Part shown: in pieces, positions 51,574-61,836 of the stretch
How positions within the stretch are numbered: position 1 is the first letter of the stretch
Layout of the letters: each line of letters starts with the position of its first letter
Assembly (NCBI RefSeq): GCF_002216795.1
Contig: NZ_CP022316.1
Coordinates: 2,445,205-2,509,204 of the forward strand
Reading direction: 5' to 3'
Source: Brachybacterium avium
GTDB lineage: Bacteria > Actinomycetota > Actinomycetes > Actinomycetales > Dermabacteraceae
DNA length: 64,000 bases
Program-made: the position numbers and the translations under genes
Notes under the pieces: generated by a model
Databases searched by the model: none
The model's input: only the letters and a program-made list of their open reading frames with translations
What the model was told of the DNA's origin: nothing

Positions 51574-51596
51574 GACGGGCGAGAGCTGACGAATGC

Positions 51597-51633
51597 CCCA
51601 CATCATTACTATCGACCATAGTAACTATGTGGG
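51597..51633. promoter_or_regulatory. 37-bp imperfect palindrome CCCACAT-CATTACTATCGACCATAGTAACT-ATGTGGG (core TACTAT-N5-ATAGTA) about 40 nt upstream of dsbA-like gene
   Basis: Inverted repeat read from the sequence. The core CATTACTATCG...ATAGT recurs at about 56546-56568. Confidence 0.6.
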
Positions 51634-51675
51634 AGGGTAGCGCCGGATGCCGCACCCGACCCGACCGGAGGACCC

Positions 51676-52455
51676 ATGTCTCGCGCCCATCGATCCGACC
51701 CCACGCATGCGTCGCGGGACGGCGTCCTGCGTCGCTGGGGGATCCCGGTGGGGATCGGGGTCGCCGTCGCCGCGCTGATCGCCGGGGTGTTCTGGGTTCA
51801 GCAGGAACCGGCGACCACGCCCACGCAGGGCAGCGGCGGGAGCTCGACGAGCTCCGAGCAGCCGGCGGCGATCGAGCATCCGGAATCGGTGGCCGCCCCC
51901 GATCTCAGCTCCCAGGAGGGGCGGGATCCCGATGACCAGCTCGCCGAGGGGCCCGTCGATGCGCCGGTCGTGCTGGTCATGTTCTCGGACTTCCAGTGCT
52001 CGTTCTGTGCGAAGTGGTCCGACGAGACCCTGCCGGAGATGCGCGAGTACGTCGAGCGCGGTGAGCTGCGCATCGAGTACCGCGATGTGAACATCTACGG
52101 CGAGGACTCCGAGCGCGCCGCCCGGGCGAGCCTCGCTGCCGCGATGCAGGGTGAGCATGCGCAGTACCACGCACTGCTGTTCGAGGACGGCGAGATCCGC
52201 TCCGGCCAGGGGCTCAGCGAGGAGTCGCTGGTCGAGCTGGCCGGGCAGATCGGCCTGGACACGGAGCAGTTCGCGGCCGATATGAACTCGGAGCAGGTCG
52301 CCGAGACGATCGCGGAGAACGCGCAGCAGGGCATCGACCTCGGGGCGATGTCGACCCCGGCCTTCATCATTGGCGGCACCCCGACCGCCGGCGCGCAGCC
52401 CACCGAGGTGTTCACCGAGCTGGTGGACAAGGCGCTGGCCGAGAGCGAGGGCTGA
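51676..52455 (+). CDS. DsbA-family thiol:disulfide oxidoreductase (thioredoxin fold), membrane-anchored
   Basis: TM anchor (GIPVGIGVAVAALIAGVFWV). CxxC active site FQCSFCAKW. Confidence 0.8.
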   Translation: MSRAHRSDPTHASRDGVLRRWGIPVGIGVAVAALIAGVFWVQQEPATTPTQGSGGSSTSSEQPAAIEHPESVAAPDLSSQEGRDPDDQLAEGPVDAPVVLVMFSDFQCSFCAKWSDETLPEMREYVERGELRIEYRDVNIYGEDSERAARASLAAAMQGEHAQYHALLFEDGEIRSGQGLSEESLVELAGQIGLDTEQFAADMNSEQVAETIAENAQQGIDLGAMSTPAFIIGGTPTAGAQPTEVFTELVDKALAESEG

Positions 52456-52456
52456 G

Positions 52457-53335
52457 ATGGAGGTCGGACTCCTCACCGCCTTCTTCGGCGGGGCGCTCGC
52501 GCTCCTCAGTCCGTGCGGAGCGCTCCTGCTGCCGGGCTTCTTCGCCTCCACCGTGACCTCCCGCGCCGCCCTGCTCCCGCACGCCGTGGTGTTCTATCTC
52601 GGTCTGGTGGTGACCCTGGTCCCGCTCGGCGTCGGCGCCGGGGCGCTCGGAGCCCTGGTGATCGGGCACCGCACCCTGCTGATCGGCATCACCTCGCTGG
52701 TGCTGGTGCTGCTCGGCGCCCTGCACGCCCTGGGCCTCGGCTTCGATCTCAGCCGGGCCCTCCCGGGCTTCGACCGTCTCCAGCAGCGCTCGACCCAGGG
52801 CTCCGGGCTCGCCCGCAGCTTCGTGCTCGGCGCCGTCGGCGGGATCGCCGGATTCTGCGCGGGGCCGATCCTCGGCGCCGTGCTCACCCTGGCCATGGGT
52901 CAGGGGAACATGCTCCTGGCCGGGATCCTGCTCGCCGTTTACGGCGCCGGGATGGTGGTGCCGCTGACCATCCTGGCGGCGGTCTGGAACCGCCTGGGCA
53001 GCCGGGGCAGGAACCTGCTGCGCGGCCGCGAGTTCACGCTGCTGGGGCGACGCCTGCACACCACCACCTTCATCACCGGAGTGGTGATCATCGCCCTCGG
53101 CATCGTGTTCTGGGTGACCAACGGCCTGGTCACCATGCCCTCTCTCGTCCCCACCAGCACCCTCGCCCGCTGGCAGGCGGGCAGCGCCGGTCTCAACGAC
53201 CCCGTCGTGCAGATCGCCGTGATCCTCGCGCTCGGGGCCCTGGCCCTGCTGCTGTGGTGGCGGTGGGACCGGCGTCGGCGGCGGGAGCAGGACGCCCCGA
53301 CCACCATCACCCTGACCCCGGGGAGGCGGCCATGA
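52457..53335 (+). CDS. ccdA: CcdA/DsbD-family cytochrome c biogenesis-type thiol:disulfide transporter
   Basis: Start MEVGLLTAFFGGALALLSPCGALLLPGFF. 292 aa polytopic, with a second Cys (GFCAGPILG). Confidence 0.8.
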   Translation: MEVGLLTAFFGGALALLSPCGALLLPGFFASTVTSRAALLPHAVVFYLGLVVTLVPLGVGAGALGALVIGHRTLLIGITSLVLVLLGALHALGLGFDLSRALPGFDRLQQRSTQGSGLARSFVLGAVGGIAGFCAGPILGAVLTLAMGQGNMLLAGILLAVYGAGMVVPLTILAAVWNRLGSRGRNLLRGREFTLLGRRLHTTTFITGVVIIALGIVFWVTNGLVTMPSLVPTSTLARWQAGSAGLNDPVVQIAVILALGALALLLWWRWDRRRRREQDAPTTITLTPGRRP

Positions 53336-54549
53336 GGCGCCGCAGCGTCCTGGCCGCCCTGCCGCTGGGTCTGCTCGGCCTCAGCGCCTGCGGTCCGGAC
53401 GGCGGCGGCGAGCCCGCCGGTCCGGCGCCGGCGGCCCCGGTCGAGCACCCCGAGCCCGTGCAGGTCGGCGAGCTCGCCGAGGTGGTGGAGTACACCGAGG
53501 TGCGGCTGCCGCTGGAGATGACCCCGATGGTCGTCGTCGACCCCGGCTGGACCGCCGTCCCCCTCCAGCTCGACGGCATCTTCCTCGGCTATCGCGAGGA
53601 GGAGGAGCAGCTGCGGTTCCTCGCCGTCGACCAGGACGGCACCGTGCTGTGGCGGGCGGACCGCCCCCTGAGCTGCACCGGGTACGTGCTGACCCGCGGG
53701 CCGAAGAAGACGCCGATCGCGGTGCTCGCCGATCTGGCCGCCGCCGAGCAGGAGGGGGCCTGGGCGATGACCCTGACGGCCTATGACCTGCGGACCGCCG
53801 AGCCCCTCTGGGGCCCGGTCGAGGCGCCCGGCCCCCAGGCCGCCCCCGGCCTGGTCTATGCGGCACCGACCGATCAGGCGATGGGGGAGGGCGGCCCGCG
53901 CACGGCGCTGTCCGGCGTCACCGGGGAAGTCCTGCTGGCCGAGGTGGATCTCGCCGACGGCCGCATCCTCGGCGAGCATCTGGGCGCGCTGGTGCGCACC
54001 GAGGGCTCCGAGCTGCTGGCCAGCGGCGCCGCCGGCGAGGAGCTCTGGCGCAGCCCGTTGCCCGCCGGGGTCGAACCGGCCCGGGCACGGTTGCGCGGCA
54101 CCGTCGATCCGACCACCTCCTTCGCCGTGATCGGCGACCAGGACTCGCCCGGTGCGGTGATCGACCTCGCCGACGGCCGGGTGATCGCCGAAGGCGCGGA
54201 TGCCGTGGCCCGGGATCACGTCCTCGAGATCACCGTGGTCGTCTCGGGCACGACCGTGCGCGGGCTCGAGGACGACGGCACCGAGAAGTGGACCCATGAG
54301 GATCCCGAGCCGCTCCAGCTGCTCTGCGCCGGGGAGCGCCTGGCCTACGCCGTCCGCCCCGAGGAGGGCACGCTCGTGGTGCTGGACACGAACCACGGCC
54401 TGATGGTCCAGCCCTACGACGTCGACCTGACCGGACCGCTCGCCGTCCCCCAGGTGTTCTCCGCGGACACCGCCGCCGCCGTGCGCATCGAGGAGCAGTT
54501 CTTCCTGGTCACCACCGAGTTCGACGAGGACTTCGGCCTGCGGGAATGA
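53332..54549 (+). CDS. secreted lipoprotein of unknown function (possible beta-propeller)
   Basis: Lipobox LLGLSAC. 405 aa. ATGA overlap with ccdA. Confidence 0.5.
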   Translation: MRRRSVLAALPLGLLGLSACGPDGGGEPAGPAPAAPVEHPEPVQVGELAEVVEYTEVRLPLEMTPMVVVDPGWTAVPLQLDGIFLGYREEEEQLRFLAVDQDGTVLWRADRPLSCTGYVLTRGPKKTPIAVLADLAAAEQEGAWAMTLTAYDLRTAEPLWGPVEAPGPQAAPGLVYAAPTDQAMGEGGPRTALSGVTGEVLLAEVDLADGRILGEHLGALVRTEGSELLASGAAGEELWRSPLPAGVEPARARLRGTVDPTTSFAVIGDQDSPGAVIDLADGRVIAEGADAVARDHVLEITVVVSGTTVRGLEDDGTEKWTHEDPEPLQLLCAGERLAYAVRPEEGTLVVLDTNHGLMVQPYDVDLTGPLAVPQVFSADTAAAVRIEEQFFLVTTEFDEDFGLRE

Positions 54550-54553
54550 GCGC

Positions 54554-55552
54554 TCACAGCAGCAGCGGGCAGCCGTTCAGCAGCAGCACGGCATAGGGGG
54601 CGACGGCGACCGCCGCGAGGCCGAGCAGCGCCGCCAGCAGGGCGGACAGCGTGACGACCGGCACCAGCGCCGAGCGCGCGGCCGCCGGGGAGACCAGGTG
54701 CCCGATCCGGTCGGGTCCGATGCCCGCCGGTCCCCTCGCGTGCAGCAGGGCGCCGGGCGCGGCTGACGGCCCGGGGGCCCCGCACTCGCCGAGGGTGAGC
54801 AGTGCGCTGGCCAGGGCCGGGGTGCCGCTGCGGTGCCGGGAGGCGTCGTCCGCGGCGATCTCCAGCAGGTGCGGCACCGCGACCGCGACCGCATCGAACA
54901 GCGGGATGAGGCGCAGCGGGCCGACCATCGCCTCCAGCACCGCCAGCAGCGTGTGATGGTGCTGGGCGAGATGGGCCGCCTCATGCTCGAGGACGGCGGA
55001 GAGCTCGTCCGCGCCCAGGGAGTCCAGCAGGCCGCGGGAGACGACGATGCCTCCGCGGCGGCGCGGCAGCGCGAACGCCAGCGGCGTCGGATCCGGGACC
55101 AGCAGCACCCGATGTCCGGCGAGGACGGTGCGCACCGCCGACGCCCGCACCTCGGCGAGGACGGACCGCGTGGATCGGGCCCGGCGGAGCAACCCCCGCA
55201 CGGCGGCCGTCCCCATCAGCACGGTCCCGGCCAGTGGCAGCAGGAGCAGGGCCGCCATCGGCACCGGCAGCTCGACCGGGGCGGCGGCGAAGGGGCTGGC
55301 CGCGGCGAGGCAGCGCTGGCAGACCTCGCCGGCGGAGCCCGCGAGCAGCCGGGGACCGCTGGGCAGCCCGGCCAGGGCCACGCTGAGCACCGCCGCCGCC
55401 GTCGACCACACCGCCAGGGCCCCGAGCAGCAGCCCGGAGGCCAGGCGCGGGGCGCGCATCAGCAGCGGGGAGCTCCAGCGCACCAGGCGCGGACCGGTCA
55501 ATGCGAGCAGGACGAGCGCGAGGGTGAGCAGCGCGAACAGGGGAAGCGTCAC
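54554..55552 (-). CDS. M56-family (BlaR1-like) metallopeptidase lacking a C-terminal sensor domain
   Basis: 332 aa, 4 TM. Zinc motif HEAAHLAQHHH. Start overlaps the BlaI-like stop. Confidence 0.8.
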   Translation of the reverse strand: MTLPLFALLTLALVLLALTGPRLVRWSSPLLMRAPRLASGLLLGALAVWSTAAAVLSVALAGLPSGPRLLAGSAGEVCQRCLAAASPFAAAPVELPVPMAALLLLPLAGTVLMGTAAVRGLLRRARSTRSVLAEVRASAVRTVLAGHRVLLVPDPTPLAFALPRRRGGIVVSRGLLDSLGADELSAVLEHEAAHLAQHHHTLLAVLEAMVGPLRLIPLFDAVAVAVPHLLEIAADDASRHRSGTPALASALLTLGECGAPGPSAAPGALLHARGPAGIGPDRIGHLVSPAAARSALVPVVTLSALLAALLGLAAVAVAPYAVLLLNGCPLLL

Positions 55553-55962
55553 GCCGGCGCCGATCCGGGATCCGGGGCGCCGGTGCCGTCGTGGCCGTTG
55601 AGGTACTCGCGCAGCAGCGCGGCCTCCCGATCGTCCATGCCCTTGACGAAGCGCAGGATCGAGGCGCTGCGGTCATTGCTGCTGGACAGCGCCTGCTCCA
55701 TCAGTCGGGCGGCGTGCTCCGAGCGCGGGTGGCGCGGTCGATACCGCACCGAGCGCCCCACCCGGCAGCCGGAGACCAGGTCCTTGCGCCCGAGATTCGA
55801 GAGCACCGTGGCGATCGTGGTGTATGCGTGGTGGTCGCCCAGGCCGGAGATCAGCTCGCGGATCGTCAGCTCCTCGTGCTCCCACAGCTGCTCCATCACC
55901 TGCTGCTCCAGGGTCCCCAGACGCACCTGCTGGAAGGGTCGGGAGTCCTCGGTCCCGCTCAT
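55549..55962 (-). CDS. BlaI/MecI/CopY-family transcriptional repressor
   Basis: Start MSGTEDSRPFQQ. Winged-helix EQQVMEQLWEHEELTIRELISGL. 137 aa. The longer ORF up to 56154 is a read-through. Confidence 0.8.
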   Translation of the reverse strand: MSGTEDSRPFQQVRLGTLEQQVMEQLWEHEELTIRELISGLGDHHAYTTIATVLSNLGRKDLVSGCRVGRSVRYRPRHPRSEHAARLMEQALSSSNDRSASILRFVKGMDDREAALLREYLNGHDGTGAPDPGSAPA

Positions 55963-56528
55963 AGGATCGCCGCCGAACGGGCCGAACGGGCCGGCTCCGC
56001 AGTGGGGAGGGGGCAGGCGACCTGGCCCCGCAGGCGCGAGAGCACCGCGATCACCGAGAGCACGAGGGCGAGGGCGGCCAGGAAGGGCTGGGCGGGCGCG
56101 AACCAGGTCAGCGCCCCGCTGTACCCGAGCGCGAGCAGCGCGAGCTTGTTGCACACGGGGCAGCCCACGGCGAACCAGGCCAGCATGCCGGCCGCGGTCC
56201 CGGTGCGGGCATCACGGCGCTCGCCGGCGTCGGCGGCGCTCCCGGACCGTGCCGCGCGGTCTCCCGGAGGCGCCACGTAGGTGGCGATCAGGAGACCCAT
56301 CAGGGCGGAGGTGAGCAGCCAGACCGGGTAGTTCCACGGCACGGTGGGGATGTCCCGGGAGAAGAGCGAGTTGGGGATCAGCACGGTCGCCAGTCCCATG
56401 GCGATCGCGATCCCGGTCGCGGCGACGACGGCGGTGAGCACCTGCCGGATGCCCCATCCCCGCAGTGCGGAGGCGGACAGGCGGAGGGTCTCCCCGAGGA
56501 GGCGGGGCCAGCGCGAGATCTGTGGCAT
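55959..56528 (-). CDS. small membrane protein with intramembrane CPVC motif, first gene of the BlaI/M56 operon
   Basis: About 190 aa, 4-5 TM. WFAVGCPVCNKLALLALGY. Stop overlaps the BlaI start. Start coordinate +/-3. Confidence 0.45.
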   Translation of the reverse strand: MPQISRWPRLLGETLRLSASALRGWGIRQVLTAVVAATGIAIAMGLATVLIPNSLFSRDIPTVPWNYPVWLLTSALMGLLIATYVAPPGDRAARSGSAADAGERRDARTGTAAGMLAWFAVGCPVCNKLALLALGYSGALTWFAPAQPFLAALALVLSVIAVLSRLRGQVACPLPTAEPARSARSAAIL

Positions 56529-56545
56529 GGCCTTCACTATGCCTC

Positions 56546-56568
56546 ATTCATTACTATCGCGGATAGTC
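56546..56568. promoter_or_regulatory. CATTCATTACTATCGCGGATAGTCG dyad (TACTAT-N5-ATAGTc) immediately upstream of the membrane-protein/BlaI/M56 operon
   Basis: Shares the 11-mer CATTACTATCG and the dyad architecture with the site at 51597-51633. Confidence 0.6.
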
Positions 56569-56605
56569 GTCGTGAGGAGGTCGTCGGCCGCGGCGAGCCG
56601 ACCGC

Positions 56606-58117
56606 TCAGAGCCGGGCCTCGAGCCGTCCAGCGACCACGGTCGCCAGCACCCAGGTCTCCCGCAGCCGCTCCGCCGTCTCCCGGGCCGCGGAGTCGTCCA
56701 TCAGGCCGTCGGCCCCCAGCGGCACGTCGGCGAAGGGGTCCTCCTCCAGCAGCACCACATCACCCACCCCGCCCACCTGGAGGGAGGTGACGCCGTCGGT
56801 CGAGGCGGCGAGGGCCTCGCGGGGCTGCAGCTGCTGCTCGGGATGCCAGCCCGAGCGCTCATCGGCGCTGCGGTGCACGGCGGCGGCCATCGCCAGCCAC
56901 GGGTCCAGCGGCGCGACCGGGGCATCGGAACCCAGCGCGAGCGGCACCCCGGCGCGCAGCAGATCCCGCAGCCGGAAGGCCTGGGTGCCGTGGCCGGGCC
57001 AGAGGGACTCGGTGGCATCACGATCGTCCAGCAGGTGCGCGGGCTGCACGGAGGCGGTGACGCCGAGGGCCGCCATCGCGTCGATGTCGTCTTCGGTGAG
57101 CATCTGCGCATGCTCGATGCTCGCGGTGATGCCGACGGCCCGGATCGCCTCGAGCGCGACCTGCGCGGCGGCATCGCCGATCGCATGCACCGCCGCGTCG
57201 AGCCCCTGGGCCTTCGCCTGGGCAAGGGCGTCCCGCAGCGCCTGCGGGCCCACGCTGAGGACCCCGCGCCCGGCATAGCCATGGCCGTCGGTGTACGCAT
57301 CGCGGGTGTATGCCGAATGGGAGCCGAGCGCCCCGTCGACGATCACCTTCAGCGGGCCCATCGTCACCAGGCCCCGCGCATCCAGCACCGTCCCCGTCGG
57401 GCCGGGGGCCGCCGCGAGCTCCTCGGGATAGACGGAGGTGCGGATCCGCATCCGCGGCGCACGCAACGGCCAGGTCTCCCAGGGACGCCCCCACTCCATG
57501 TCCACCAGCCCCACCACCCCGCGCTGCAGCGCCTGCCGCTGCATCATCGCCGCCCCGGTCGCAACGGCATCGGCGACCCCGGGCAGCACCGGCAGCAGGG
57601 GGACCACCGAGAACCACTCCTCCTCGGCCACGATCCCGTCCCGCGGGGGCAGCGCCAGCCGATGCAGCGCCGCCGAGTTCAGCCAGGCATGGTGGGCATC
57701 CCCGCCGATCAGCACCGTCGGGACCGAGCCCGTCGCCTCGTCGAGCGCCGGCACCGTCGGCTGCACGGCGAAGTCCACCAGGCGATGCCCGAACCCGACC
57801 AGCGCCTGATCCCTCATGCCCGCCTCGCGGCGCGCGGCCAGCTCGGCCCGCACCAGCTCGAGGATCACCCCCACGCTGCCCGCGCCGCCGGTGTCCAGGC
57901 GGGCATGGGCCTGCGCGAGCTGCCCGGTGTGGACATGCCGGTCCCACAGCCCGGGGATCGCGAGCGCTCCCTCGCCGTCCAGGGCCTCCTCGCCGGGCAC
58001 GGGGGAGAGGTCCGGGGCGATCTCGGTGATCACGCCGTCATGGATCCGCAGGTCCACCGGCGCGTCAGGAGCTTCGCCCGTGGCGGCGTCGAACGGCCGC
58101 ACCTGTCTGATCAGCAC
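56606..58117 (-). CDS. amidohydrolase-family metal-dependent hydrolase (amidohydro_3-like)
   Basis: GTG start at about 58117 (VLIRQVRPFDAATG). HVHTGQ and AVHAIGDAA metal-binding blocks. The ORF continuation to 59239 is antisense to the ABC ATPase. Confidence 0.7.
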   Translation of the reverse strand: MLIRQVRPFDAATGEAPDAPVDLRIHDGVITEIAPDLSPVPGEEALDGEGALAIPGLWDRHVHTGQLAQAHARLDTGGAGSVGVILELVRAELAARREAGMRDQALVGFGHRLVDFAVQPTVPALDEATGSVPTVLIGGDAHHAWLNSAALHRLALPPRDGIVAEEEWFSVVPLLPVLPGVADAVATGAAMMQRQALQRGVVGLVDMEWGRPWETWPLRAPRMRIRTSVYPEELAAAPGPTGTVLDARGLVTMGPLKVIVDGALGSHSAYTRDAYTDGHGYAGRGVLSVGPQALRDALAQAKAQGLDAAVHAIGDAAAQVALEAIRAVGITASIEHAQMLTEDDIDAMAALGVTASVQPAHLLDDRDATESLWPGHGTQAFRLRDLLRAGVPLALGSDAPVAPLDPWLAMAAAVHRSADERSGWHPEQQLQPREALAASTDGVTSLQVGGVGDVVLLEEDPFADVPLGADGLMDDSAARETAERLRETWVLATVVAGRLEARL

Positions 58118-58219: not shown

Positions 58220-59176
58220 ATGACCACGACGACCGCGCCCGTTCCCGACACCTCGACCATCACCGCTGCGATCAGCCTCTGCGGCGTCACCAGGACCTAC
58301 GGCGGCGTTCGCGCCCTGGACAGCCTCGACCTCGAGATCCGCCCCGGCGAGATCGTCGCGCTGCTGGGCCCCAACGGTGCCGGCAAATCCACCGCGATGG
58401 AGATGATGGTGGGGATCGCGACACCGGAGGCCGGGCAGGTGCACATCCTCGGCACCGACCCAGCCACCGCCACCCGCACCGGACTGATCGGCACCATGCT
58501 CCAGGCCGGCGCGCTGCTGCCCGACCAGAGCGTCCGCTCGATGCTGCGGATGCTCCACTCCCTGCAGGCCCACCCCATGCCGATGGACGAGGTCGTCTCC
58601 CAGGCCGATGTCGGTGAGCTGCTGCGGCGGAAGATGGGGGCGCTCTCCGGCGGGCAGGCCCAGCGGGTCCGCTTCGCGATCGCCCTGCTCGGCGACCCGC
58701 AGGTGCTGCTGCTGGACGAGCCCACCGTCGGCATGGACATCGGCGCCCGCCGCGCCTTCTGGGGCCAGATGCGCGCCGTCGCCGCGACCGGCCGCACCGT
58801 CGTCTTCGCCACCCATCAGCTCGAGGAGGCCGAGCGCGAGGCCGCCCGCGTCGTGGTCATGGATCGCGGCCGCGTGGTCGCCGACGGCACCGGCGCCGAG
58901 ATCAGCGCCGCCGTCGCCGGGCGCGTGATCACCCTGGGCGGCGTCGCGCCCGCCCAGATCGCGAACCTTCCCGGGGTCGAGAGCGCCGCGGCCGACGAGA
59001 CCGACCCGCGCCGGGTGCGCGCCCTCTGCACGGACTCCGATGCGGCACTGGCCGCACTGTTCACCGGACCCCTCGCCGCCGAGGTCCACGAGGTCCTGGT
59101 CTCCGCACCCGGCCTCGAGGAGGCGTTCTTGCGCATCACCGACCACGACGCCGACCACGAAGGAGACCGCCGATGA
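58220..59176 (+). CDS. ABC transporter ATP-binding protein
   Basis: Walker A GPNGAGKST. Signature LSGGQAQR. Walker B LLLDEPT. Confidence 0.85.
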   Translation: MTTTTAPVPDTSTITAAISLCGVTRTYGGVRALDSLDLEIRPGEIVALLGPNGAGKSTAMEMMVGIATPEAGQVHILGTDPATATRTGLIGTMLQAGALLPDQSVRSMLRMLHSLQAHPMPMDEVVSQADVGELLRRKMGALSGGQAQRVRFAIALLGDPQVLLLDEPTVGMDIGARRAFWGQMRAVAATGRTVVFATHQLEEAEREAARVVVMDRGRVVADGTGAEISAAVAGRVITLGGVAPAQIANLPGVESAAADETDPRRVRALCTDSDAALAALFTGPLAAEVHEVLVSAPGLEEAFLRITDHDADHEGDRR

Positions 59177-60039
59177 GCCACCCCGCCGCCACCGCTGCAG
59201 GAACCACCACCGACCTTCGGAGCTCCGCCATGACGTCACCGCCCGAGAACATCACGCTCACGTCCACAGCGCCTGCCGCCCGCGCCGCGGCCGCCCCCTC
59301 GGACGCCTCCCGCACTCTGCGCTATGCGCTGCACACCACGGCGATGACCGTCACCGACGTCATGTTCATGGTCTTCACCATCGCGATGCCGGTGGGGATG
59401 TACCTGCTGTTCGGGATGATGTTCGGCGACCAGGGCGGGGGAGAGGCCCGCGGGATGATCATGGTGAACATGGCCGCCTACGGCGGGCTCGGCGCCGCCG
59501 TCACCGCCGGCACCCAGATCCAGGAGGACCAGCGCACCGGCTTCCTGCGCCAGCTGATCGTCGCCGGGCTGTCGCCGCGCTCCTTCCTGGCCGGTTCCGT
59601 GATGGCCGCCAGCGCCGTCATCATCCCGGCGCTGATCGCGGTGAGCGTGGTGGGGCTCGCGACCGGCGTCGAGGTCGGCCCGGCCGCATTCCTCCTCACC
59701 ATCGTGGTGCTCTGGCTGGGGCTGCTGCCCACGATCCTCATCGGCATCGTGCTCGGCATGGTGCTCAAGGGCGGCACCGCGATGGCCGGCGGCGTCGTCA
59801 CCATGATGGCGATGGCGATCTTCGGCGGGCTCTGGATGCCGCTGGAGATGTTCCCGACCTGGATGCAGCAGATCGGTCACGCGATCCCCACCTACTGGAT
59901 CTCCCAGCTGGGGCAGTGGTCGATGTACGGCGGAGACCTGCCGGTGACCGGGCTGCTGGTGATCGGTGCCTGGACCCTCGGGCTCGGCGTGCTGTGCGCC
60001 CTCAGCCTGCGCGGCGCGGTGGGCCTGAAGCGCCGCTGA
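59173..60039 (+). CDS. ABC-2 type transporter permease
   Basis: 288 aa, 6 TM. ATGA overlap with the ATPase. Confidence 0.75.
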   Translation: MSHPAATAAGTTTDLRSSAMTSPPENITLTSTAPAARAAAAPSDASRTLRYALHTTAMTVTDVMFMVFTIAMPVGMYLLFGMMFGDQGGGEARGMIMVNMAAYGGLGAAVTAGTQIQEDQRTGFLRQLIVAGLSPRSFLAGSVMAASAVIIPALIAVSVVGLATGVEVGPAAFLLTIVVLWLGLLPTILIGIVLGMVLKGGTAMAGGVVTMMAMAIFGGLWMPLEMFPTWMQQIGHAIPTYWISQLGQWSMYGGDLPVTGLLVIGAWTLGLGVLCALSLRGAVGLKRR

Positions 60040-60043
60040 CACA

Positions 60044-61204
60044 ATGACCTCCATGCGGACACGTGAGGCGATCGAGCGGGAGACCTGGGTGCGCGGCACC
60101 GAGGCAGAGGCCGCGGCACGCCCCGTCACCCCGCGCGGGATCCTGCGGGCAGCGAAGGAGTCCGGCGGGCTCGCCTTCTCGATCCCCCCGGTGCTGTTCA
60201 TCATGATCCCCGTCGTGTTCGCGTGGACCCAGGCGCCCGCCCGCGCGGCGCTGCTGGTGACGGTGATGCTCGCGCTCTATGCGCTCCTGTTCGTCGCCAC
60301 CAGCGGCATCGGCCTCTACCCGCTGCGGATACGGGTGCTCTGGTTCGCGGCCTGCACCCTGCTGCTGCTGGCCATGATCCCGCTGCTCGGACCGAACCTG
60401 CTGTTCATGGTGATGTTCCAGGCCATGACGCACGTGCTGCTGCTGCCCTGGCGCTGGGCGCTGCCCTCGATGCTGCTGATGAGCCTGACCGTCGTGGTGC
60501 TCGCCTTCGTCCTGGACGTGCCGATCGCGGCCGGCCTGGCGGTGATGGGCACAGTGATGTCCTGGGGCATCGGGTACGGGGTGCGCCAGCAGATGCTCCA
60601 GGAGCAGCTCGAGGCCGCCCAGCAGCGCAACGCCGTGCTCGCCGTCGCCGCGGAGCGCGAGCGGATCGGCCGCGACCTCCACGACCTCGTCGGCCACTCC
60701 CTCACCTCGCTGACCATCTCCGCGCAGCTCGCCCGCCGCCTGCTGGACTCGGACCCCGAGGCGGCCCGCATCCAGCTCGAGCACATCGAGGTCACCGTGC
60801 GCCAGGCGCTCGCGGACGTCCGCGCGACCGCCAGCGGCATGCAGCACGTGCGCGCCGCGACCGAGATCGCCTCCGCCCGCACGGTGCTGGGCACCGTCGG
60901 CATCCAGGCCGAGGTCCCCACCGCGCTGCCCCCGTTGCACGACGACCTCGCCGAGCTGTTCGGCTTCGTCATCCGCGAAGGGGTCACCAACATCGTGCGC
61001 CACTCCCGCGCCACCCGCGCCGAGATCCGCGTCGACGAGAACTCCGTGAGCGTCGAGGACGACGGCGTCGGCATCGCCCAGGGCGCGGAGCGCTCCGGGC
61101 TGCGCGGCCTCGAGGCGCGGGTGGCGCTCGCCGGCGGTCGCCTCGAGGTGGCCTCCAGCGAGACCGGCACCCGCGTCACCGCAGTGATGGGAGCGACCTC
61201 ATGA
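60044..61204 (+). CDS. sensor histidine kinase, HisKA_3 family (membrane, no large extracytoplasmic domain)
   Basis: N-terminal TM block. H-box ERERIGRDLHDLVGHSLTSL. HATPase_c (REGVTNIVRHS...DDGVG). Confidence 0.8.
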   Translation: MTSMRTREAIERETWVRGTEAEAAARPVTPRGILRAAKESGGLAFSIPPVLFIMIPVVFAWTQAPARAALLVTVMLALYALLFVATSGIGLYPLRIRVLWFAACTLLLLAMIPLLGPNLLFMVMFQAMTHVLLLPWRWALPSMLLMSLTVVVLAFVLDVPIAAGLAVMGTVMSWGIGYGVRQQMLQEQLEAAQQRNAVLAVAAERERIGRDLHDLVGHSLTSLTISAQLARRLLDSDPEAARIQLEHIEVTVRQALADVRATASGMQHVRAATEIASARTVLGTVGIQAEVPTALPPLHDDLAELFGFVIREGVTNIVRHSRATRAEIRVDENSVSVEDDGVGIAQGAERSGLRGLEARVALAGGRLEVASSETGTRVTAVMGATS

Positions 61205-61836
61205 TCCGCCTGGTGGTCGCGGACGACCAGGCGATCCTGCGCTCCGGCCTGGTCGCGCTGCTGGGCCTGGAATCCGATGTGGAGGTGGTGGGGGAGGCGG
61301 CCGACGGGGCGGGCACCCTCGCCGCCGTCGCCGAGCATCACCCCGATGTGCTGCTGCTGGACGTGCAGATGCCGGCCGGCACCACGGCCGACGGGAAGCC
61401 CGGACCGAAGGACGGCATCGCCGTCGCCGAGACCCTGCGAGGAGCCGCGCAGGCGCCGCGGATCATCGTGCTGACCACCTTCGGCAGGGCCGGCTACCTG
61501 CGCCGCACCATGGAGGCCGGGGCCGGCGGGTTCATGGTCAAGGACACCCCCGTCGAGCAGCTGGTGGACGCGATCCGCCGCGTCCACCAGGGATTGCGGG
61601 TGGTGGATCCGGAGCTGGCCGCCCAGTCCCTCGCCGTCGGCTCCAGCCCGCTGACGCTCAAGGAGACCGAGGTGCTGCAGGCCGCCGCCGCCGGCGGCAC
61701 CACCGCCCGCATCGCCCAGTCCCTCTTCCTCTCCGAGGGCACCGTGCGCAACCACATCTCCGCCGCGATCGGGAAGCTCGGGGTGACGGGCCGTGCCGAG
61801 GCCGTGAGGGCCGCCTCCGAGAACGGCTGGATCTGA
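61201..61836 (+). CDS. two-component response regulator, NarL/LuxR family
   Basis: Receiver (RLVVADDQAILRSGL...LLLDVQMP) plus LuxR HTH (LTLKETEVLQAAAAGGTTARIA). ATGA overlap with the HK. Confidence 0.85.
   Translation: MIRLVVADDQAILRSGLVALLGLESDVEVVGEAADGAGTLAAVAEHHPDVLLLDVQMPAGTTADGKPGPKDGIAVAETLRGAAQAPRIIVLTTFGRAGYLRRTMEAGAGGFMVKDTPVEQLVDAIRRVHQGLRVVDPELAAQSLAVGSSPLTLKETEVLQAAAAGGTTARIAQSLFLSEGTVRNHISAAIGKLGVTGRAEAVRAASENGWI

Follow-up and report, generated by a model that had tools for sequence, protein, structure and literature searches.

Background

The removal of a BlaI-type repressor by a BlaR1-type protease is already known, and the PetRP pair provides a precedent for its use outside antibiotic resistance. 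In Synechocystis sp. PCC 6803, the presence of copper leads PetP, an M56 protease without a sensor domain, to degrade the BlaI-type factor PetR, and two conserved methionines in the loop of PetP that joins its transmembrane helices two and three (TM2 and TM3), a loop that in BlaR1 contacts the sensor domain, have been proposed as copper ligands. Here, we present a computational analysis of a locus in Brachybacterium avium in which a BlaI-family repressor and an M48/M56-type protease are encoded in one operon with a membrane protein carrying a CPVC motif (the CPVC protein), and in which the same dyad motif stands before this operon and before a second one that encodes a DsbA-like thiol-disulfide oxidoreductase, the electron transporter CcdA and a lipoprotein. 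The locus lies in a stretch of 64,000 nucleotides of contig NZ_CP022316.1, and this whole stretch is referred to below as the 64-kb window. Our reading, to which we assign a probability of about 0.7, is that a BlaI dimer represses both operons through the shared dyads and that cysteine-triggered cleavage by the M56 protease would derepress them.

Actinobacteria fold many exported proteins with disulfides, and the sensing and correction of envelope thiol damage are poorly known. The conserved regulon presented here is real and apparently has not been described before. Neither a dsbA-ccdA regulon under BlaI/M56 control nor a CPVC family was described in the full-text literature that we searched, in agreement with a preliminary description of this DNA, which had called the regulatory link non-standard. 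The apparently new elements are a thiol-disulfide regulon with its operator, a putative sensor built on cysteines, the CPVC family as a partner and the wide conservation of the system in Actinobacteria.

Putative operator sites and promoters

Within the window, 51607-51622 and 56552-56567 are the sole places where TACTATNNNNNATAGT is matched with at most one mismatch, in each case on both strands, with a chance expectation of 0.01 and none of 100 shuffles reaching four matches. The longer form CATTACTATCG-N3-ATAGT occurs exactly at 51604-51622 and 56549-56567 (0.00 expected). That the two operons share a motif had been proposed in the preliminary description, and it holds, with TACTAT-N5-ATAGT found exactly twice in 64 kb against 0.01 expected; the 6-5-6 TAC...GTA layout given there was likewise recovered.

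The predicted operator of the dsbA operon (51597-51633) consists of the core dyad TACTAT-CGACC-ATAGTA at 51607-51623, embedded in an imperfect palindrome whose reported length of 37 bp was found again, with arms of 16 nucleotides that are 88% complementary and a spacer of 5 nucleotides. The distance of about 40 nucleotides to dsbA that had been given for this site applies to the end of the palindrome, 42 nucleotides before the ATG, but not to the core dyad, which ends 52 nucleotides before it. The downstream arm, AACTATGTGGG, reads as what is left of a decayed second dyad that overlapped the first and that other Brachybacterium species still have in full (AACTATGTGGGATAGTG, versus AACTATGTGGGAGGGTA in the window). 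The half-sites TACTAT and AACTAT of this region also resemble -10 hexamers, and they are followed by a 5' untranslated region with a GGAGG ribosome-binding site 7 nucleotides before the dsbA ATG.

The predicted autoregulatory site of the CPVC-blaI-M56 operon (56552-56568) reads GACTAT-CCGCG-ATAGTA in the direction of the genes and lies 23 nucleotides before the first of them, so that the promoter of the repressor's own operon carries a TAC...GTA-type inverted repeat, a candidate operator as far as its sequence goes. At a 17-bp period on the promoter-proximal side, a degenerate second dyad at 56535-56551 (ATGAAT-GAGGC-ATAGTG in gene direction) can be made out when ten Brachybacterium promoters are aligned and compared with the dyads that other genera carry in tandem. 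Its half-site GGCATAGTG is conserved and stands 7 nucleotides before the conserved ATG of the CPVC gene at 56528, and the CATAGT within it has the A2 and T6 of a -10 hexamer. A -10-like element so close to the start codon indicates that the CPVC-blaI-M56 mRNA is probably leaderless or nearly so and that the operator overlaps the -10 region. A scan for sigma-70 consensus promoters gave zero matches, such a scan being uninformative for high-GC Actinobacteria.

Conservation of the dyad across Actinobacteria

For the comparative analysis, 25 genome loci were fetched by relatives of the repressor, and more were obtained through CPVC homologues and plasmid searches. Dyads were counted as ACTAT-N5-ATAGT with at most one mismatch in the 24 loci bearing the cassette, that is, the genes of the two operons, over a total of 418,781 bp. 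Forty-eight of the 50 matches fall in the promoter of either the dsbA operon or the CPVC/blaI operon, and the other two stand in tandem in a different intergenic region, on a plasmid of Microbacterium.

This association persists although the arrangement of the genes changes. In Brachybacterium, the two operons are convergent and each has its own site, whereas they are divergent, with a single short intergenic region between them, in Microbacterium, Salinibacterium, Stackebrandtia, Rhodococcus, Nocardia, Streptomyces and Ornithinimicrobium and on one Arthrobacter plasmid; at most of these loci this region carries two or three tandem dyads, typically with a 17-bp period. The link between dyad and operons therefore spans at least five actinobacterial orders as well as the rearrangement from convergent to divergent. 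The dyad also follows the repressor gene: it precedes the blaI operon in the relatives that have blaI, with only a half-site kept in one locus (L010), and no dyad was found in 16.5 kb around each of two dsbA-ccdA-CPVC cassettes that lack blaI and M56 (Arthrobacter pAD51 and R. erythropolis pREL1). More distant BlaI homologues are accompanied by related 6-5-6 dyads of the form TACTAC-N5-GTAGTA, in locus L022 about 60 nucleotides upstream of the blaI homologue. Since the dyads lie almost exclusively in the two promoters, survive rearrangement and track blaI, the predicted autoregulation of the repressor and its co-regulation of dsbA-ccdA(-lipoprotein), both put forward in the preliminary description, are strongly supported by comparative genomics.

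Several loci depart from the common arrangement. In B. vulturis HQB-332 (L001, 9795-10538), the CPVC gene is internally deleted, only residues 1-45 and 163-185 matching, and M56 is absent, while the two operators remain, as do blaI and the dsbA operon, which may represent a natural loss of the signalling arm. Brachybacterium sp. UMB0905 (L016, 9394-10390) has blaI alone, with neither CPVC nor M56, divergent from two small multidrug-resistance (SMR)-type genes and separated from them by a dyad; the nearby operon of dsbA, ccdA and the lipoprotein gene has kept a dyad of its own. In Ca. Brachybacterium merdavium (L010, 5525-9360), the CPVC gene is missing, the half-site GCATAGTGG stands alone upstream of blaI, and blaI-M56 precedes, in the same orientation, an ATPase gene whose product has a CPH motif and a His-rich N-terminus and which is preceded by a CsoR-type palindrome, ATACCCCCTGGGGGTAT. 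The tandem pair on the Microbacterium plasmid (NZ_CP072877, locus L033, 13868-13898) consists of perfect ACTAT-N5-ATAGT dyads before the gene of a 182-residue hypothetical protein, about 3 kb past the M56 gene, a possible extra member of the regulon. Finally, the R. qingshengii plasmid pLP2 (L035) carries four dyads of the TACTAT-N5-ATAGTA type within 14 kb (at 254, 6970, 11976 and 13614), before CPVC-like, MMPL transporter and M23 peptidase genes. As no blaI is visible there, these dyads hint at a larger regulon on the plasmid that would be controlled in trans.

Repressor and protease

The repressor gene (55549-55962, minus strand) encodes a BlaI/MecI-family winged-helix protein of 137 residues that matches Penicillinase_R (PF03965) at 2.8e-22, with 79.7 bits against a cut-off of 22.6 and 114 of 115 profile positions covered, and is homologous to M. 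tuberculosis BlaI (2G9W, E 7.9e-15). Its closest relative among the loci, that of B. vulturis, is 91% identical. The protein had been labelled BlaI/CopY-type, and only the first half of this label stands: because the C-terminal CxCx4CxC motif is absent, we classify the repressor from its sequence as BlaI-type and not CopY-type. There is no CxC either and no cysteine after residue 65, and the sole cysteine, C65, is not conserved in close relatives. A conserved phenylalanine in the motif ASIL(R/H)-FV aligns with the HF of M. tuberculosis BlaI; it falls at the same position as the Asn-Phe cleavage site of S. aureus BlaI and MecI in their C-terminal dimerisation helix.

The gene of the protease (54554-55552, minus strand) starts with a GTG that overlaps the blaI stop (GTGA) and encodes a zinc metallopeptidase of 332 residues with four TM helices and the motifs HEAAH and EIAADD. 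In an alignment of 36 sequences, H190, E191, H194 and E231-x-A-A-D235 are invariant, and hydropathy and the positive-inside rule place these zinc-protease motifs in a cytoplasmic domain between TM3 and TM4. The AlphaFold2 model of the peptidase has a predicted local distance difference test (pLDDT) score of 82, and its Foldseek matches in the PDB with a probability of at least 0.4 are all M48/M56-type or related minimal zinc metalloproteases, the latter being selecases, with the highest query TM-score for S. aureus BlaR1 (8EXQ, probability 1.00). Many homologues carry precomputed PF05569 matches, and NCBI names them M56; the likeness of the peptidase to BlaR1 is at the level of the clan.

The protein ends 15 residues past the last TM helix and has no penicillin-binding (class D beta-lactamase-like) sensor domain, as had been implied when it was called a sensor-less M56 peptidase. 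The term does not fit in full: the TM2-TM3 loop carries (D/E/G)VCQRCLAAASPF, a CxxC, and the short C-terminal tail a cysteine in a GC motif, each in 115 of 117 full-length homologues, the two exceptions looking mis-framed. In the alignment of 36 sequences, C78, C81 and C328 are invariant, and both C78-x-x-C81 in the loop and C328 in the tail are predicted to face outward. The peptidase would accordingly not be truly sensor-less and would possess a putative cysteine-based sensor made up of an extracytoplasmic CxxC and the C-terminal cysteine.

Thiol-disulfide genes and the CPVC protein

The gene identities given in the preliminary description, namely the DsbA-like protein, CcdA, lipoprotein, peptidase, repressor and CPVC protein, are borne out by the open reading frames and profile searches. 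The DsbA-like oxidoreductase (51676-52455, plus strand) matches Thioredoxin_4 (PF13462, 1.5e-21) and DSBA (PF01323, 9.7e-18), both above cut-off, and shows the thioredoxin fold, an N-terminal TM anchor, the CxxC active site CSFC (108-111) and the cis-Pro loop STP. Its closest solved relative in the PDB sequence search is C. diphtheriae DsbA/TsdA (4PWO/7UNN, E 2e-33), and ScsC is also among the matches (4GXZ, 6NEN and 6MHH, E ~1e-5). The CcdA/DsbD_TM membrane electron transporter (52457-53335, plus strand; DsbD_TM, PF02683, 2e-11, 44 bits against a cut-off of 27.1) has two family cysteines, C20 and C134 in alignment numbering, which are invariant in 13 orthologues, in keeping with a family of six-TM proteins that have a conserved cysteine in both TM1 and TM4. 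The lipoprotein (53332-54549, plus strand) has a signal peptide, the lipobox LSAC and a PQQ_2/BamB-like beta-propeller (2.6e-9); its gene is an accessory member of the operon that Brachybacterium and Streptomyces have and Rhodococcus lacks. Given its partnership with CcdA, the DsbA-like protein may function in the reduced state as an isomerase or reductase, the direction of electron flow in this reading being a putative one.

Within each operon, all three genes are linked by overlapping or abutting stop and start codons: ccdA starts one base past the dsbA stop (TGAGATG), the lipoprotein ATG overlaps the ccdA stop (ATGA), and the blaI ATG overlaps the stop of the CPVC gene (ATGA). This indicates translational coupling in both operons.

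Far below cut-off, the best NCBIfam matches of the DsbA-like protein and CcdA of the window are families linked to selenoproteins, the Rcas_1661 thioredoxin-like (seleno)lipoprotein (E 1.3e-32) and the rhodanese/DsbD fusion TsoB. These sub-cut-off matches are a further hint, at the level of sequence, of a connection between DsbD and rhodanese (sulfur).

The CPVC protein (55959-56528, minus strand) has four TM helices, and its most likely start is the conserved ATG at 56528, not the first GTG of the reading frame at 56537. Its invariant motifs are TVLIPN, WNYPVW, FAVGCPVCNK and GQVxCP, with the CxxC within TM3 and a third cysteine on the predicted cytoplasmic side. Searches of Pfam, NCBIfam and PDB sequences and folds returned no match or relative, and a word-indexed search yielded 1518 matches. 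Clustered at 50% identity, the family comprises 914 clusters at E <=1e-3 and 545 at E <=1e-10. On this evidence the protein belongs to an uncharacterised, well-conserved actinobacterial 4-TM family. A survey of Arthrobacter plasmids (PMC6305408) annotates it as a second 'CcdA', and we rejected the idea of a divergent CcdA after an hhalign comparison of CPVC and CcdA alignments gave a probability of 0.65%.

The family is associated with thiol-disulfide genes in the absence of the regulators as well. It shares one operon with dsbA-ccdA in Arthrobacter pAD51, it is divergent from dsbA-ccdA in R. erythropolis pREL1, and in the metagenomic protein P0392 (457 residues) a complete CcdA (DsbD_TM, both cysteines) is naturally fused to a complete CPVC domain (GCPVCNK and the C-terminal cysteine), with a junction that fits a cytoplasmic N-terminus of the CPVC domain. 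Operon sharing and gene fusion tie CPVC to the thiol-disulfide genes independently of the regulators, and it makes more sense to count the protein with the DsbA-like protein and CcdA as a third thiol-disulfide effector than to regard it as a passenger of the operon. A Streptomyces mirabilis plasmid carries CPVC and blaI-M56 without dsbA-ccdA. Two apparent CPVC-BlaI 'fusions', P0381 and P0374, degenerate in sequence after GCPVCNK and were set aside as frameshift artefacts.

Proposed mechanism

We propose that, when no signal is present, a dimer of the 137-residue BlaI-family protein would bind (T/G)ACTAT-N5-ATAGT(A/C) dyads overlapping the -10 regions of the two promoters and keep both the CPVC-blaI-M56 and the dsbA-ccdA-lipoprotein operon repressed. 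The co-transcribed M56 protease would act in the role of BlaR1 or PetP, with the CxxC of its TM2-TM3 loop and its C-terminal cysteine exposed to the outside, and modification of these thiols would cause the cytoplasmic zinc-protease domain to cleave the repressor and so derepress both operons. Candidate modifiers are soft metals such as Cu(I), reactive sulfur species, sulfite and a changed thiol-disulfide balance outside the cytoplasm. The induced set, comprising the membrane-anchored DsbA-like oxidoreductase, the electron importer CcdA, the CPVC protein and, here, the beta-propeller lipoprotein, would form an extracytoplasmic pathway for thiol-disulfide reduction or isomerisation and repair, analogous to the copper-induced Scs and DsbDEG systems.

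A number of observations weigh against this proposal. The residue before the conserved phenylalanine of the repressor is Arg or His and not Asn, and the outward placement of the sensing cysteines comes only from hydropathy and the positive-inside rule. The structural similarity of the peptidase to BlaR1 is weak (E 0.08, query TM-score 0.34), and at E<0.01 the peptidase of the window matches Pfam M48 (PF01435, 7e-10) and not M56 (PF05569). The neighbourhoods of related loci point to persulfide/sulfite and copper genes alike, and neither kind is found in the 64-kb window. Finally, three loci (L001, L016 and L032) keep blaI and operators with no M56 gene nearby, and therefore proteolysis by a linked M56 cannot be the sole route.

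Inducing signal and alternative explanations

The common denominator of the neighbourhoods is thiophilic stress on exported cysteines, and the inducer would be copper, reactive sulfur or sulfite, or general disulfide stress, none of which we favour.

With the wiring unchanged, the protease may be a sensor of copper or another soft metal, Cu(I) binding to its three outward cysteines, in the manner suggested for the methionines of PetP, and the effectors repairing non-native disulfides formed by copper catalysis, like ScsBC or DsbDEG; we regard this version as possible and no more than tentative. It fits the response of Synechocystis PetRP to copper and the copper-induced systems with DsbA-like and DsbD-like proteins that are known from Gram-negative bacteria, namely Scs and P. 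aeruginosa DsbDEG/DsbRS. Copper genes also stand near several cassettes: in Ca. B. merdavium, blaI-M56 is followed by a CopB-like P1B ATPase; on the S. mirabilis plasmid, CPVC-blaI-M56 lies among DUF305, DUF6153, HMA and P-type ATPase genes; in Rubrobacter, a CPVC gene sits in an island of CsoR, copper-binding-protein and ATPase genes; and a P-type ATPase gene adjoins dsbA-ccdA-CPVC in pAD51. However, the Ca. B. merdavium ATPase gene is preceded by a CsoR-type palindrome of its own and by no ACTAT dyad, metal genes are missing from the surroundings of most chromosomal cassettes, and the variants in metal islands are the most divergent (~40% identity), the M56 of S. mirabilis lacking the CxxC.

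In Nocardia grenadensis (L041, 10830-11255), a gene for an LpqS-family lipoprotein lies 2 kb from the cassette, a proximity that may be coincidental. LpqS is copper-responsive in M. tuberculosis.

Alternatively, the same circuit may respond to reactive sulfur, with sulfide, polysulfide, persulfide or TauE-exported sulfite attacking or persulfidating the outward disulfide or thiols of M56, and the regulon would then repair sulfur-damaged exported cysteines or traffic sulfane sulfur across the membrane. This is a version that we would put forward with reserve. Genes for a CstR/CsoR-like regulator, a persulfide-dioxygenase-rhodanese, rhodanese, TauE, DsrE, DUF302 and TrxA adjoin the cassette at seven independent loci, four of which, chromosomal or on plasmids, have blaI-M56 (L009, L011, L029 and L033), while L032 has blaI without M56 and L037 and L038 lack blaI-M56. 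A DsrE-like gene follows M56 or ccdA in L028, L032, L033, L037 and L038. In Rubrobacter, the gene of a secreted rhodanese shares the transcription unit of the CPVC gene, and the survey of Arthrobacter plasmids (PMC6305408) placed the cassette, there named the 'CYT' cluster, with a sulfur module, with no analysis of regulation. Against this, the 64-kb window and most Brachybacterium loci are free of such genes, and the association by neighbourhood may reflect shared mobile islands.

A further and rather doubtful idea is that the outward cysteines of M56 are themselves substrates of the DsbA-like/CcdA/CPVC pathway that M56 controls, and that CPVC represents a new class of relay partnering CcdA. 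The module would then amount to a self-contained redox-stat of the actinobacterial envelope, in which the protease reads the thiol-disulfide state directly and the pathway corrects it by feedback, and the CPVC family would relay thiol-disulfide, sulfane-sulfur or Cu(I) alongside CcdA.

It is very unlikely that the dyads belong to another, unlinked regulator with blaI nearby by coincidence, or that the palindrome is an RNA hairpin or the terminator of the upstream MFS gene. The palindrome starts 24 nucleotides past the MFS stop and folds with -21.2 kcal/mol, at a modest z-score of -2.06, but it has no U-tract and no Rfam match, no terminator was called there, and the second site (56552-56568) lacks an extended stem. 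In the alignment of Brachybacterium promoters, the half-sites are invariant, the 5-bp spacers vary freely without compensatory changes and the flanks cannot be aligned, which is the signature of a protein-binding site and not of an RNA stem, and we rejected the palindrome as an RNA element or terminator. As for an unlinked regulator, the dyads are present with blaI and absent from blaI-less cassettes, and the blaI operon is always preceded by one. Least credible of all is that the repressor senses metal directly like CopY and that the protease is irrelevant, given that its weak similarity to TIGR02698 CopY_TcrY (E 6.4e-5, 23.2 bits) lies far under the cut-off of 121.95 bits and that it has neither the C-terminal CxCx4CxC or CxC nor a conserved C65.

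Other genes in the window

Beyond the amidohydrolase gene, the window contains genes for an ABC ATPase (58220-59176), an ABC-2-type permease (59173-60039), a histidine kinase (60044-61204) and a LuxR-type response regulator that ends at 61836. The genes from 58220 to 61836 have no associated dyad.

Significance

If the proposed mechanism is true, Actinobacteria possess a dedicated sensor-regulator pair for envelope thiol damage, and BlaR1-type proteases would be general transducers in which a few cysteines can serve as the sensor. It would be the second non-antibiotic use of the BlaI/BlaR1-type switch, after cyanobacterial PetRP, and it would link envelope disulfide chemistry to copper or reactive-sulfur stress in Rhodococcus, Streptomyces, Arthrobacter and Microbacterium, on chromosomes as well as on mobile plasmids. 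The module would also supply a defined operator and regulon to work with, along with a conserved, unannotated membrane family (the 914 clusters) that is joined to CcdA by gene fusion. The pair of promoter and operator could further act as a biosensor of the inducing stress.

Comparison with known systems

The closest functional precedent is PetR/PetP of Synechocystis. Both systems have a BlaI-family protein co-transcribed with a 4-TM M48/M56 protease that lacks a C-terminal sensor domain, soft-ligand residues conserved in a short, outward TM2-TM3 loop, and an inverted-repeat operator with a 5-bp spacer. The loop of PetP contains two methionines, whereas the cassette M56 has a CxxC together with the C-terminal cysteine; the PetR operator is GAC-N5-GTC and that of the cassette ACTAT-N5-ATAGT; and PetR acts on petE and petJ, the plastocyanin/cytochrome c6 switch, while the predicted targets in the cassette are thiol-disulfide genes. 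The petRP mRNA is unchanged on copper addition, whereas in the cassette the dyad overlaps the promoter of the operon itself, and PetR/PetP belongs to a different phylum and has no CPVC partner gene.

With BlaI/BlaR1 and MecI/MecR1 of Staphylococcus and Bacillus and with BlaI/BlaR of M. tuberculosis (Rv1846c/Rv1845c), the cassette shares the combination of a repressor and a membrane zinc protease in one operon, predicted in the cassette to be autoregulated, the winged-helix domain (the 2G9W match given above), the HExxH in a cytoplasmic loop and the phenylalanine at the staphylococcal cleavage position. Unlike BlaR1 and MecR1, its protease has no penicillin-binding sensor, the putative sensor is based on cysteines and the predicted regulon concerns envelope thiols and disulfides; no beta-lactamase or PBP2a target was found in the 64-kb window or at any related locus. 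CopY/TcrY of Firmicutes has in common with the repressor the N-terminal fold family and a TAC...GTA-type dyad operator, but CopY is defined by the C-terminal CxCx4CxC (or CxC) that the repressor lacks, senses metal directly and involves no protease.

On the effector side, Scs (ScsB/ScsC) and P. aeruginosa DsbDEG likewise combine a DsbA-fold protein with an electron importer of the DsbD/CcdA family in an induced envelope stress response. They are Gram-negative and periplasmic, stand under two-component control (such as CpxRA or DsbRS) and have no protein of the CPVC family, where the cassette has a BlaI/M56 switch. A copper-induced plasmid DsbA of Kineococcus radiotolerans was not tied to the cassette, as the plasmid searches returned no Kineococcus record.

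TsdA of C. diphtheriae (DIP0397), which among solved structures is the homologue nearest to the DsbA-like protein, acts as an isomerase/reductase in vitro and can stand in for MdbA as an oxidase in vivo. A T-to-G suppressor derepresses the cryptic tsdA gene 30-fold, which was attributed to an improved -10 box, with no test of a repressor site (PMC9974433). Like the DsbA-like protein, TsdA is membrane-tethered, normally silent and stress-induced, properties that in the case of the cassette are predicted. The tsdA locus (L031) has no ccdA, CPVC, blaI or M56, and we dropped TsdA as an experimental anchor and treat it as a paralogue in another genomic context.

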